Shown piece after piece: positions 2,834 to 48,646 of a DNA stretch of 64,000 nucleotides. The translations under genes were made by a program, and so were the position numbers. This stretch comes from Patescibacteria group bacterium. GTDB lineage: Bacteria > Patescibacteriota > Minisyncoccia > Portnoybacterales > GWB1-42-6. The stretch is from NCBI GenBank assembly GCA_022709865.1, contig JAKLIA010000002.1:14521-78520 (forward strand), given 5' to 3'. Within the stretch, counting starts at the first letter, position 1, and each line of letters begins with the position of its first letter. The notes below the pieces were generated by a model. The model saw nothing but the letters and a program-made list of their open reading frames with translations. It ran no database searches and was not told the DNA's origin.

Positions 2834-3832
2834 ATGATTTTTAGCTTAGCTTTATTATTAATCCTTGGTCTTATTATTATCACTGTTATGTCCTCAATAG
2901 CAGATAAAAAGATCGGCCCAAAAGAGGTCTTCTTGCAGCTGTTAAGCACGGCTGTCTTATATTTTTCAGCTATCAGTCTGGGAGTTTTGCTTTTTCAATT
3001 TATCAATATCTATTTCCCCGACATTTTAAAAGTTGATTTTTACCAGCGAGAAAGCTATTTTTCTTCGATGCGTTGGGCAGTGGCGGTGCTGGTGATAGTT
3101 TTTCCGGTATATATTTGGTCTTTGTGGTATACCAGGAAGGCAGAATTGGCCACGCCGGAGCTTAAAGAGATGCTAACTCGCAAGTGGCTTCTTTATTTTA
3201 CTGTTTTTGCGGCGGCGGCCGTGATCATTGGGGACCTGGTGACCTTAATCTTTAATTATCTGCAAGGCGAAACAACGACTCGTTTTGTTCTTAAAATAGC
3301 TTCGGTGTTATTTATTGCGGCGGCGGTTTTTGGTTATTATTTTTGGGAATTGCGCCAAGAAAAGAATCCTAAAGCGGCTAAGTTCGTTAAGATCGCCAAA
3401 TGGGGGATTGTTATTATTGTGGCCGGGTTGGTGGTTTTTGGGTTCTATTCAGCCGGCTCTCCGCAATCAGCCAGGGTTTTAAGGCTGGACCAGCAAAGGC
3501 TGAGCGATCTGCAAGGCATGCAAAACCAGATAGTTTATTTTTGGCAGCAGAAAAATCGTTTGCCCCTTAACGCAGCGGAATTAACGGATAGCATTTCCGG
3601 ATACGTAGTGCCTCAAGATCCGGAAACAGGCCTTTCTTATGAATATAATGTTTTAGGCAATTTAAAGTTTGAACTTTGCGGCGTCTTTAAAACAGAAGGC
3701 GAAACCGGGAATGTCCAAGTGCCGACAGAAGTTTCAAAGATTAACTTATACGCTGATAATTGGCAGCATAGCATTGGCCGGGTTTGCTTTGAGCGCGCCA
3801 TTGATCCGCAGTTATATAAGCTGAATAAATAG
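2834..3832 (+). CDS. Hypothetical polytopic membrane protein
   Basis: 332-aa ORF with multiple hydrophobic helices; no recognisable catalytic motif. Followed by an imperfect hairpin terminator (3845-3879). Confidence 0.5.
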   Translation: MIFSLALLLILGLIIITVMSSIADKKIGPKEVFLQLLSTAVLYFSAISLGVLLFQFINIYFPDILKVDFYQRESYFSSMRWAVAVLVIVFPVYIWSLWYTRKAELATPELKEMLTRKWLLYFTVFAAAAVIIGDLVTLIFNYLQGETTTRFVLKIASVLFIAAAVFGYYFWELRQEKNPKAAKFVKIAKWGIVIIVAGLVVFGFYSAGSPQSARVLRLDQQRLSDLQGMQNQIVYFWQQKNRLPLNAAELTDSISGYVVPQDPETGLSYEYNVLGNLKFELCGVFKTEGETGNVQVPTEVSKINLYADNWQHSIGRVCFERAIDPQLYKLNK

Positions 3833-9766: not shown

Positions 9767-10053
9767 TTGCGCAAGAGCGTGATTCCTTATGCACTTATTA
9801 TCCGCCTTAATACTTGACAAGCTTTTAGACACTTGGTATCACTAATATATTAGAAATCTAGACATGTTCAAGAAGGGTTGTTTAGGTTTTTTTATTTATA
9901 AAATTAATAATATAAAGTGAAGGCAATGAAGCTCAGTCTTTATGTGGACGCCTAGACCGAGTGGAGCCAACGGCGTAACCGCTCACTCAATAAAGACTGT
10001 TCTGGCGGGCTGATTCCACAATTTACTCGCGGAAACAGCACTTTATAAAAAAA

Positions 10054-45399: not shown

Positions 45400-46902
<1,503 letters not shown>

Positions 46903-47081
46903 CTAGATTTTTTTATTTACTTTATGTAAATGCATCTTCTAGAAAAGTGTCGATTATTCTGTTTACAGAGTAGGTCGCGGCGTAGACCTTAAATTCGCTG
47001 GTTCATAATTGTGTAACCCTTAAATGACCAATTCGAGATAACTAAAAGAACCTAATTGTGGAATTGCGAAATAACAAAAAA

Positions 47082-47108
47082 TGCCTCTTGATTTGAGGCG
47101 TTTTTTTG
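47082..47108 (+). terminator. Hairpin plus T-tract downstream of the 16S gene
   Basis: GCCTC-TTGATTT-GAGGC followed by TTTTTTTGTT. Confidence 0.4.
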
Positions 47109-47142
47109 TTTATAATAAAAACTGCGTAAATAAGGGCGATTA

Positions 47143-47428
47143 GCCCCTCACTTGAAAAGGATATGTTTTATGTTTATGTCCTAAAAAGTGAAGTAGATGA
47201 TAAACTGTATATTGGCTATACAGATGATCTACGACGCAGAATTGAAGAACATAGCAAAGGAAAGTCAAAGGCAACAAATCCAAGGAAACCATTTAAGCTG
47301 GTTTATTACGAGGCCTACTTCTCCCGAAGCGATGCTAAATATAGGGAAAGTCAATTAAAAAGATTTTCTGGTTCATACACACATCTGAAAAGAAGAATTA
47401 AAAATTCAATCCTTTTCAAGTGAGGGGC
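47143..47428 (+). mobile_element. GIY-YIG ORF cassette bracketed by a perfect 20-bp inverted repeat, inserted at the 5' end of tRNA-Ile
   Basis: Left arm gcccctcacttgaaaaggat (47143-47162) and right arm atccttttcaagtgaggggc (47409-47428) are exact reverse complements. The 11-nt gggcgattagc is directly repeated at 47134-47144 and 47425-47435; the second copy is the start of tRNA-Ile. Confidence 0.5.
47163..47423 (+). CDS. Small GIY-YIG nuclease-family protein (86 aa)
   Basis: MFYVYVLKSEVDDKLYIGYTDDLRRRIEEH: the GIY-(10 aa)-YIG spacing and the conserved Arg and Glu of the GIY-YIG fold. The stop codon lies inside the right IR arm. Confidence 0.8.
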   Translation: MFYVYVLKSEVDDKLYIGYTDDLRRRIEEHSKGKSKATNPRKPFKLVYYEAYFSRSDAKYRESQLKRFSGSYTHLKRRIKNSILFK

Positions 47429-47498
47429 GATTAGCTCAGGTGGTTAGAGCGCGTCACTGATAATGACGAGGTCCGAGGTTCAACTCCTCGATCGCCCA
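47425..47498 (+). tRNA. tRNA-Ile (anticodon GAT)
   Basis: GGGCGAT acceptor, D-arm AGCTCAGGTGGTTAGAGC, anticodon loop CTGATAA, T-arm GGTTCAACTCC, 3' ATCGCCC plus discriminator A. CCA not encoded. Confidence 0.9.
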
Positions 47499-47565
47499 CA
47501 AAAAAAGGGAGAGACAAAAAACTGTCCCGATAAACCTCCTTTTTAAGGAGGTCATTTTGTATCAG

Positions 47566-47638
47566 GGGCCGATAGCTCAGTTGGTAGAGCACCTCGTTTG
47601 CAACGAGGGGGTCTGGAGTTCGAATCTCCATCGGTCCA
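47566..47638 (+). tRNA. tRNA-Ala (anticodon TGC)
   Basis: Acceptor GGGCCGA/TCGGTCC with the G3:U70 Ala identity pair. Anticodon loop TTTGCAA. T-arm GGAGTTCGAATCTCC. Confidence 0.9.
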
Positions 47639-47656
47639 CTTTTCTTTTATCAATTT

Positions 47657-47932
47657 ATGAAAAAGAGACTGGAATGTTTTATTTTTGGCCGAGTCCAATT
47701 GGTGATGTTTCGGGATTTTACCCAGCGCAAGGCTAAATCTCTGGGCTTGGTTGGCACGGTTAAGAACCTGCCGGATGGCTCGGTTTTTGTGGTGGCGGAA
47801 GGCGAAGAAGAAAAACTTGCTCGGCTGCTAGAAAAATTAAAAAAAGGTTCTTTATTATCCCGGGTAGACAAGCTTGAAGAAAAATGGCTGCCAGCAACAG
47901 GGGAGTTTATTAATTTTAAAATAGTATTTTAA
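47657..47932 (+). CDS. Acylphosphatase
   Basis: 91 aa. The GRVQLVMFRDFTQRKAKSLGLVGTVKNLPDGSV pattern resembles the acylphosphatase VQGVxFR / GxVxN signatures. Confidence 0.7.
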   Translation: MKKRLECFIFGRVQLVMFRDFTQRKAKSLGLVGTVKNLPDGSVFVVAEGEEEKLARLLEKLKKGSLLSRVDKLEEKWLPATGEFINFKIVF

Positions 47933-47938
47933 TTTTCT

Positions 47939-48646
47939 ATGCCTAACGACAAAATACCAGGCGGCCCAAAAACCATCGGCGTTATCATGGATGGCAACCG
48001 GCGCTGGGCCAAAGAACAAAGTTTACCAACCATGGAAGGGCACAAAGTCGGGCTTAAAAAAATAAAAGATCTGACTAAGTGGGCCAAAGACCTAGGAGTC
48101 TCTACAATTTATCTCTACGCTTTTTCAACTGAAAATTGGAACCGCGAAAAAGAAGAAGTGAATTATTTGATGAAGCTTTTTTTACAAGCTTTTAGAGAAG
48201 ACTCAAAAGAACTAGTAAAACAAAAGGTGCGAGTTAAGTTTGCCGGCCAAACAGAAAGGTTTTTTCCGATTTTGCGCCAGAGCATTAAAGCGCTAGAAAG
48301 AATGACCAAAAACTTTTCTGGCTTAACCCTGGTTTTTTGCCTTTCTTATGGCGGGCGGGCAGAGATCGTTGCTGCCATTAAAAAAATAGCAAAACAAAAA
48401 ACCGCCCAGGAAATAGAAACCCTTACCGAGGATGATTTTTCTCGATTTTTATGGACCAACGGGCTGCCAAACCCAGAGCTGGTAATCCGCACTTCCGGAG
48501 AAGTCCGCACCTCAAACTTTTTGCCCTGGCAAACTGCTTATAGTGAATGGTTTTTCTCTAAGACTTATTGGCCAGCCTTTACCAAAGAAGAGCTTAAACA
48601 AATATTAGAAGATTTCTCAAAACGGGAGATTCGCCGCGGCCGATAA
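47939..48646 (+). CDS. uppS: Undecaprenyl (isoprenyl) diphosphate synthase
   Basis: GVIMDGNRRWA, YAFSTENWNR, RTSGEVRTSNFLPWQ blocks. Confidence 0.9.
   Translation: MPNDKIPGGPKTIGVIMDGNRRWAKEQSLPTMEGHKVGLKKIKDLTKWAKDLGVSTIYLYAFSTENWNREKEEVNYLMKLFLQAFREDSKELVKQKVRVKFAGQTERFFPILRQSIKALERMTKNFSGLTLVFCLSYGGRAEIVAAIKKIAKQKTAQEIETLTEDDFSRFLWTNGLPNPELVIRTSGEVRTSNFLPWQTAYSEWFFSKTYWPAFTKEELKQILEDFSKREIRRGR

Follow-up and report, generated by a model that had tools for sequence, protein, structure and literature searches.

A 286-bp GIY-YIG cassette in a Patescibacteria tRNA-Ile gene: probably a selfish mobile element of a large family

We consider a small cassette in the spacer between the 16S ribosomal RNA (rRNA) gene and the gene of transfer RNA (tRNA) Ile, on a stretch of 64,000 nucleotides (nt) from a Patescibacteria group bacterium (contig JAKLIA010000002.1). 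This whole stretch is called the window, and positions are counted in it. The cassette encodes a free-standing protein of 86 amino acids (aa) with the GIY-YIG nuclease fold and is enclosed by an inverted repeat. It is probably a selfish mobile element that has inserted in the tRNA-Ile gene and whose mobility may be driven by its nuclease. As judged from sequence, it belongs with many other cassettes of about 0.3 kb to a large family in Patescibacteria. An earlier note, made from the letters of the window alone, had taken it for a small mobile cassette that inserted at, and duplicated, its tRNA target. The open reading frame (ORF), the exact 20-bp arms and the 11-nt repeat of the tRNA-Ile start on which the note relied are all present. 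Its interpretation is borne out by the same lineage at other tRNAs with matching repeats, by an empty site (L085), and by tandem and miniature copies.

The insertion in tRNA-Ile

The two 20-nt arms are perfectly complementary, and none of 100 dinucleotide shuffles contains any match at up to 3 mismatches; the inverted repeat can be extended to 27 nt with 89% complementarity (47136-47162 and 47409-47435). The element has no spare sequence, since it consists of arms and ORF only, with the gene filling the interval between the repeats and overlapping the right one. The right arm runs, as had been noticed, through the stop codon (TGA, 47421-47423), and its end provides the first four nucleotides of tRNA-Ile(GAU), which begins at 47425. 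The start of this tRNA, GGGCGATTAGC (47425-47435), is repeated directly at 47134-47144. The direct repeat is not an assembly artefact, because dozens of separately made assemblies show this arrangement too.

How long is the target duplication? We measure it directly adjacent to the inverted repeat after the latter has been extended to its maximum. At loci with the terminus GCCCCTCAC, the adjacent direct repeat is exactly 5 nt (NNNTA, tRNA nt 5-9) in 15 loci, while the other subfamilies and the copies without an ORF have a duplication of 4 bp (TAAA, TTTA, ATAA, CCTA, TATG, TTGA). When left and right flanks are deliberately mismatched as a control, about 1% of the pairs reach at least 4 nt and about 0.6% reach at least 5 nt. 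The duplication of the target reported in the earlier note holds, but its length of 11 nt does not. The 11-nt repeat most likely has three parts, namely an orphaned GGGC (4 nt), the duplication GATTA (5 nt) and the GC of the left terminus (2 nt). From these features of the sequence we place the element, with moderate confidence, at 47143-47428 (286 bp), inserted between nt 9 and 10 of tRNA-Ile with a 5-bp duplication.

The G-run of the right terminus belongs to the element, because it is kept on the right in copies whose left flank has none (L026, L036, L061, L074 and several miniature copies). The orphaned remnants of tRNA starts have decayed in relatives (GGGAC in L017, GGGTC in L004, GGGT in L025), as expected of relics. 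The right terminus ends in GGGGC, the sequence with which the target tRNAs of the element start, and therefore a complete tRNA gene exists again 3' of the insertion. The last four bases of the terminus would serve as the working nt 1-4 of tRNA-Ile, and the original GGGC would be left orphaned upstream. When an element ending in GGGGC inserts 5 bases 3' of GGGGC, the target is regenerated from this motif onward; thus the tRNA survives, tandem arrays can form, and the targets begin with a G-run.

Our first reading was a duplication of 10-12 bp with an asymmetric element (CCCTCAC...GTGAG). It was dropped as a general solution: it implies lengths ranging from 4 to 12 bp, and it fails at L026, L036, L061, L074 and the miniature copies. 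Fold-back synthesis, hairpin opening of the P-nucleotide type and synthesis-dependent strand annealing with microhomology were also considered, as origins of the left-junction hairpin, and are not needed when the duplication is 5 bp.

Relatives, termini and targets

The comparison rests on about 100 related loci, of which 80 are homologous loci from a scan with one genome per species; nearly all are from Patescibacteria. They follow one plan: terminal inverted repeats with a conserved outer motif, a promoter-less nuclease gene inside, and a target duplication of 4-5 bp. The arrangement in the window had been called unusual, and it turns out to be the norm for this large family.

Among the relatives whose flanking tRNAs are confirmed, the closest have nearly identical 20-nt arms but other targets. 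P0003 (80% aa; L081/L082) stands before tRNA-Ala(GGC) with the flanks GGGC CATTA, and P0004 (79% aa; L083) stands before tRNA-Ala(UGC) with the flanks GGGGC CGATA, so that the flanking repeat tracks the local tRNA each time. Further sites are L096 (Ala-GGC), L106 (Ala-UGC) and L111, and L086 is a site away from tRNAs. L085 is a metagenome contig and the sole locus with the spacer pattern that the metagenome scan returned. It shares a 38-nt stretch of spacer and the 3' end of 16S with the window, and its tRNA-Ile has neither the cassette nor the upstream repeat. The tRNA-Ala(UGC) of the window is a second empty site, the counterpart of the filled site in L083. Had the same ORF and repeats stood everywhere at one place, with no empty site and no other repeat copies, an ancestral spacer gene would have been indicated; we find an empty site, and, while the 20-bp repeat has no other copy in the 64-kb window, near-identical arms are present in L081/L082 and L083.

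Copies without an ORF are also part of the family. Seventeen short ones occur in 0.5 Mb of loci, several with duplications of 4-5 bp, and L108 has one miniature copy similar to those of L001. Decayed copies are present in L085 (inside 16S) and in L027, and several genomes hold more than one diverged copy (L001/L003, L017/L025, L027/L065, and two in L081). Tandem units are seen at two loci. In L002 (1821-2431), two full cassettes identical in sequence precede tRNA-Ala, and in L001 (1265-1435), two 80-bp copies without an ORF, with the same 13-bp termini and CGGTA flanks each, precede tRNA-Ala(GGC); at both loci each unit is separated by the same 5-bp repeat.

Almost all relatives, including those beside protein genes or in intergenic DNA, are bracketed by the inverted repeat. 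Its outer end is a C-run followed by CAC, and its inner part is lineage-specific yet complementary. In the subfamily of the window, the outer 8 nt of the terminus are invariant and the ninth nearly so (17 of 17 sequences). The arms of this subfamily have 12 variable pairs, 11 of them with changes on both sides, and 95% of the cells are paired, which is reached in none of 500 shuffles. The pairs change by double substitutions, with one-sided intermediates almost absent.

Of the 80 relatives, at least 38 are located at a stable-RNA gene or within one (tRNA ends, RNase P RNA, transfer-messenger RNA (tmRNA), 16S and 23S). A tRNA on the same strand begins within 60 nt 3' of the stop codon at 23 of the 80 loci, compared with 0.42 expected from the local background (P about 2e-33). 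These 23 loci have twelve species of tRNA at their flank, and in 7 loci the tRNA starts exactly 1 nt past the stop codon, as it does in the window. Eight loci are inside or at RNase P RNA (L011, L019, L022, L028, L035, L044, L051, L059), L025 is at the 5' end of tmRNA, L015 is inside 16S and L041 is inside 23S; in 16S, 23S and RNase P RNA the relatives occupy helix tips. The cassettes are co-oriented with the host gene in all 12 insertions inside or at the 5' end of stable RNAs other than tRNA (P = 2.4e-4), and in all 35 loci when those at tRNA 5' ends are included.

A neighbour-joining ordering groups the protein clades with terminus motif and target class, the classes being tRNA 5' ends, RNase P RNA, and sites just 5' of protein start codons. 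No other gene is consistently near the family members in the neighbourhoods of the relatives.

Several further observations concern single targets. L023, L034, L053, L061 and L063 (around 2970-3280) form one protein clade with termini of the CCCGCACAC type, directly 5' of protein-coding genes, and the downstream start codon is in or beside the duplicated TATG (...GTGTGCGGG TATG...). The RNase P genes of L044 (3640-3700) and L035 (3240-3800) have a full cassette at P3 together with hairpins of the same terminus, lacking the ORF, at other peripheral positions; in L044 such a hairpin, CCCCCCACTTTCTATGAAAGTGGGGG, lies between the 3' strands of P2 and P1, and L035 has three. Several RNase P RNA genes fall below the Rfam gathering threshold because of these insertions. 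In the window, the tip of 16S helix 44 (46811-46824) reads GCCACATTCGTGGT, and at exactly the same position L085 has its decayed GIY-YIG cassette (CCCCCCACTTTTG...CAAAAGTGGGGG); the CCAC...GTGG of the window could be native or a scar left by an element of this kind. The closest relative, L084 (506-842; 93% aa), has the same left spacer as the window and a left repeat of the Ile type (GGGGC GATTA), and on its right side it abuts a tRNA-Ala-like gene (GGGGC CCGTA GTCTCAG). The mismatched flanks suggest that two copies recombined, with loss of tRNA-Ile, or that this short contig is chimeric.

We turn to the protein. It matches the Pfam GIY-YIG model (PF01541) with 62.4 bits against a cut-off of 22.6 (E = 4.9e-17), and the closest structures by sequence are 1zg2 (UPF0213 BH0048, E = 1.3e-8) and 1ywl (E = 5.7e-5). 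In an alignment of 29 relatives, Y5 (the Tyr of GIY), Y16 (the Tyr of YIG), G18, R26, H30 and E62 are invariant, and we take these residues to be equivalent to the catalytic ones of I-TevI and UvrC. The AlphaFold model (pLDDT 90.2) has the GIY-YIG fold, with its three-stranded sheet and helices, and consists of the catalytic core and one long C-terminal helix and nothing more. Its top matches in Foldseek are UPF0213 BH0048 (1zg2), Slx1 chains (ranks 2-6), the catalytic domain of I-TevI and the N-terminal domain of UvrC. Neither Pfam nor the model shows an additional DNA-binding module beyond the core of about 85 aa. NCBIfam and PHROGs give weak matches only, confined to the N-terminal motif, to a group I intron endonuclease model and to homing-endonuclease families. 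The wider protein family is large: at E <= 1e-10, a profile search matches 3,894 clusters.

For the window compared with L082, L083 and L084 and for these among themselves, the ratio of nonsynonymous to synonymous substitution rates (dN/dS) is 0.04-0.09 with dS from 0.45 to more than 3, and the arms are almost unchanged, being near-identical even at dS > 1.2. Thus the protein is maintained, and so are the termini.

Mechanism and competing explanations

The cassette would be expressed through its host. We infer that the ORF is read from the stable-RNA transcripts of the host, since there is no room for a promoter, an AAAGGA is contained in the left arm that abuts the ATG, and the co-orientation is strict; in the window it would be transcribed from the tRNA promoter as part of the 5' leader. 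The TATAAT and the hairpin just upstream, which had been taken as signs that the ORF may be independently expressed, are indeed present, and independent expression is not favoured: the TATAAT more likely belongs to the tRNA promoter, which has been displaced and which the ORF, having none of its own, would need. TTGATT-17-TATAAT is probably the promoter of tRNA-Ile and tRNA-Ala, now also driving the cassette. Once the right arm is transcribed, the 20-bp stem, whose left arm contains the Shine-Dalgarno sequence, would shut off translation, and it could be cut from the precursor, after which RNase P would mature the tRNA.

In the fold predicted for the RNA of 47118-47505, the full 20-bp stem is found in both the minimum-free-energy (MFE) and centroid structures (MFE -111.5 kcal/mol, z = -5.9), and this stem follows trivially from the perfect repeat. 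The same fold has the orphan GGGCGAU (47134-47140) pairing with the 3' acceptor strand of the tRNA (47492-47498), and the true 5' end is caught in the 20-bp stem. This predicted pairing may be incidental or may affect RNase P processing.

As for insertion, the nuclease may recognise the terminal motif, or a hairpin or cruciform formed by the repeats. It would make a cut with a stagger of 4-5 nt just outside the GGGG(C) run, both at the ends of the element and at naive targets, and the move would be completed by host repair or ligation. We propose tentatively, as a serious possibility that we hold less firmly than mobility itself, that the cassettes are autonomous DNA transposons of a new class with a target-restoring design, in which the sole protein, Slx1-like and 84-90 aa long, is the mobility enzyme. 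If so, elements of about 286 bp would be, as far as is known, the smallest self-mobilising ones. The terminal motif would also be the recognition motif, GGGGC, and insertion 5 bp 3' of it would regenerate the host gene from the motif on. Without being lethal to the host, the element could then settle at the 5' ends of tRNA and tmRNA genes, as well as at helix tips in rRNA and in RNase P RNA, and borrow the host's strongest promoters. A nuclease that drives mobility would be a new enzyme class for prokaryotic transposons and would set a new lower size limit for an autonomous element.

A number of observations weigh against an active, nuclease-driven element with short duplications. To our knowledge, GIY-YIG enzymes are hydrolytic nucleases and strand transfer by them is not known. 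The cassette is a single copy in the 64-kb window, where tblastn and motif searches found no further copy, solo terminus or motif pair. No recent jumps are seen: the identical proteins P0020 and P0093 have the same neighbours in all of at least 10 samples each, with no identical copies at two different sites, and the nearest copies at different sites are about 20% apart in protein sequence. Movement is thus rare on population time scales, which does not suit a highly active transposon, and the long-term purifying selection could instead mean a host function. In the flanks, L002, where the left terminus is GT as in the tRNA, and L057, where the right G-run has an A as in the tRNA, fit a longer duplication better; no target duplication is found at the 16S insertion of L015, when compared with the empty site of the window, nor in the RNase P insertions; and the flanking repeats of L084 and L007 do not match. 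Finally, the mismatches in the arms of the relatives show no excess of G:U (28, versus 24 of the A:C type), and therefore the RNA role that the arms may have finds no support in the sequences.

The first alternative is a free-standing homing endonuclease gene, which would cut cassette-free tRNA genes and be copied in by double-strand-break repair. The upstream tRNA fragment would then come from the recipient gene, out of which it was displaced; there are mobile GIY-YIG ORFs that likewise duplicate part of their host gene. The inverted repeat would be incidental or regulatory. We regard this as unlikely. The cassette shares with the free-standing enzymes the catalytic fold of I-TevI, the selfish behaviour and the association with tRNA genes, where T4 SegB, a GIY-YIG homing enzyme in a tRNA cluster, is the known example (PMC2330249); the weak matches to intron and PHROG homing models, the fit of L002 and L057, and the copies that stay put (P0020, P0093) point the same way. 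Homing, however, produces neither terminal repeats nor short target duplications, and here the same arms stand at different tRNAs with exactly matching 5-bp repeats, duplications of 4 bp occur at AT-rich sites outside genes, and miniature copies without an ORF bear their own duplications. Homing enzymes also carry extra DNA-binding modules, whereas this protein is a bare core. An Rfam scan at gathering threshold finds no intron in the window, and no known RNA family at the element.

Two more distant GIY-YIG cassettes, in L039 (2925-3330) and the second one of L081 (1005-1520), lack terminal inverted repeats and are preceded by duplicated 5' parts of tRNA-Trp or tRNA-Ser, 26-43 nt long, and they speak for homing. 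In the anticodon loop of their tRNA pseudo-copies there are small GC-rich hairpins, such as CCCCGTCGCTCGCGAGCGACGGGG with TCCA on its flanks. This type may be a second mode of spread that is nearer to homing.

Could the nuclease gene be a passenger? The cassette would in that case be a passive palindromic element, similar to a MITE (a miniature transposable element with inverted repeats), moved in trans by another enzyme, with the GIY-YIG gene as a passenger, addiction or stabilising gene. Copies with the same termini and no ORF are common, GIY-YIG enzymes are not known as transposases, and L085 indicates that Y1 transposases which mobilise palindromes exist in these genomes. Yet nearly all members have kept both the arms and the ORF, which is intact and under strong purifying selection; the clades of the protein correspond to terminus motif and target class; no further gene recurs in the neighbourhood; and the element has no sequence besides arms and ORF. 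We find a passive element quite improbable on this account. The L085 transposase is suggested by sequence motifs only: a 229-aa ORF in the same 16S-tRNA spacer (1010-1770) resembles the IS200/RAYT type and is flanked by four copies of the palindrome TCTATTGAGGTTGAACCTCGATAGA, a mobile element distinct from the cassette.

It is very improbable that the inverted repeat is primarily an RNA element, that is, a processing stem of the RNase III type which loops the ORF of an ancestral spacer gene out of the 16S-tRNA precursor, in the manner of rRNA intervening sequences that carry an ORF. The stable stem that closes the insert in the predicted fold agrees with this, as do the relatives that sit, always co-oriented, at tips of helices in 16S, 23S and RNase P RNA, and the insertions with GIY-YIG ORFs in rRNA of the Candidate Phyla Radiation (CPR) are not introns (PMC11270868). 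Against it, the arms show no G:U preference and change by double substitutions with hardly any one-sided intermediates, their outer 8-9 nt are conserved in sequence beyond mere pairing, the same arms with target duplications lie 5' of protein genes and in intergenic DNA, and an empty site exists. An RNA-processing role is compatible with mobility as a second role of the stem. That the gene is a domesticated YhbQ-like housekeeping nuclease for DNA repair or for tRNA or rRNA maturation, with stable-RNA neighbours for co-expression and with repeats that are ancient relics, is scarcely credible: the low dN/dS over saturated dS, the location fixed across many samples and the widespread single-copy UPF0213 genes of ordinary bacteria within the large protein family would suit it, but several diverged copies per genome, decayed copies, arms that stay perfect although the synonymous sites of the ORF are saturated, tandem copies and miniature derivatives do not.

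Known systems and the surroundings in the window

The mobile-element reading can be compared with several known systems. Insertion sequences and MITEs have the same hallmarks: conserved terminal inverted repeats with an outer motif, target duplications of fixed length (4-5 bp here), occupation of different sites while others are empty, miniature copies, insertions in tandem, and exchange of flanks between copies. The cassette differs in its only protein, a GIY-YIG hydrolytic nuclease of 84-90 aa and not a transposase of the DDE, HUH, serine or tyrosine class, and in being promoter-less, with an ORF that overlaps a terminus and a length of 286 bp; the smallest insertion sequences that we know of are around 0.7 kb, far above this. 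The REP/RAYT and IS200/IS605 hairpin elements use an HUH Y1 transposase and make no target duplication, unlike the cassette. Integrative elements that target tRNA genes likewise keep the gene working by supplying the displaced part and leave a fragment orphaned on the far side. Those elements, however, use tyrosine integrases and replace tens of tRNA bases at the 3' end, whereas here 4-5 terminal bases and the duplication rebuild the 5' end.

UPF0213 proteins (YhbQ, YazA) and Slx1 are the best matches in sequence and fold, and a structure-selective nuclease of this kind would fit termini that form hairpins or cruciforms. The window protein lacks the C-terminal zinc-finger domain of Slx1 and the Slx4 partner, and we know of no report of flanking repeats at ordinary UPF0213 genes. 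The intervening sequences that RNase III removes from 23S rRNA are alike in their long inverted-repeat stem, possibly allowing removal from a stable-RNA precursor, and in the position of the relatives at helix tips. The classical cases are confined to rRNA helices with no target duplication reported, and their ORF, when present, encodes an unrelated four-helix protein (the '23S_rRNA_IVP' family of PMC11270868).

The nearest precedent is that same paper (Tsurumaki et al., J Bacteriol 2024, PMC11270868), which describes insertion sequences, other than introns, that lie in CPR rRNA genes and code for GIY-YIG proteins, and treats them as sparse. Host group and protein type are the same, and relatives of the cassette lie inside 16S (L015, L085) and 23S (L041). 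The insertions of the paper are in rRNA and the window cassette is in a tRNA gene; in the passages retrieved from it there is no mention of inverted repeats at the termini, of duplicated targets, of miniature derivatives, or of targets in tRNA, RNase P and tmRNA. A literature search, with subscription journals outside its coverage, found no account of this architecture.

The family offers an explanation for the non-intron insertions at CPR rRNA, RNase P RNA and tRNA loci. It also affects annotation, through tRNA starts that are orphaned, RNase P genes that are split and fall under the Rfam thresholds, and 16S genes that are interrupted. For the problem of inserting into essential single-copy genes, the target-restoring logic is a compact answer. 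The 86-aa nuclease is a possible tool, whose specificity may come from DNA structure or from a short motif with a cut at a fixed offset.

The features of the locus are collected in Table 1.

Table 1. Coordinates of the cassette, its target and the adjacent features in the window
Feature	Position	Strand	Basis and remarks
16S rRNA gene	45400..46902	+	Rfam RF00177, 1412.9 bits; 5' of the spacer that bears the element
Terminator-like hairpin 3' of 16S	47076..47106	+	Consensus scan; conserved in L084 and L085
Promoter-like TTGATT-17-TATAAT	47088..47116	+	Consensus scan; 17 nt 5' of the orphaned tRNA start
GGGC, presumed original tRNA-Ile nt 1-4, orphaned	47134..47137	+	First part of the 11-nt direct repeat
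GATTA, left copy of the target-site duplication (tRNA nt 5-9)	47138..47142	+	Adjacent direct repeat
Left terminal inverted repeat, GCCCCTCACTTGAAAAGGAT	47143..47162	+	Inner part with Shine-Dalgarno-like AAAGGA; abuts the ATG
86-aa GIY-YIG nuclease gene, intact	47163..47423	+	Pfam PF01541; UPF0213/YhbQ-Slx1 branch
Right terminal inverted repeat, ATCCTTTTCAAGTGAGGGGC	47409..47428	+	Overlaps the final 15 nt of the ORF including the stop codon
GATTA, right copy of the target-site duplication (working tRNA nt 5-9)	47429..47433	+	Adjacent direct repeat
tRNA-Ile(GAU), intact host gene	47425..47499	+	ARAGORN; Rfam tRNA, 69.7 bits
tRNA-Ala(UGC), start GGGGC CGATA GC	47566..47639	+	Unoccupied version of the site filled in L083
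Pair of element termini, GCCCCTCAC...GTGAGGGGC			

The rRNA genes of the window are unlinked, because no 23S gene follows the 16S gene, tRNA-Ile and tRNA-Ala in the region 45400-47940. An acylphosphatase-like ORF (47657-47932) and then a UppS-like ORF (47939-48646) lie 3' of tRNA-Ala. Elsewhere in the window, a cyclic di-GMP-II riboswitch aptamer is located at 9910-9993 on the + strand (Rfam RF01786, 64 bits, above the gathering score).

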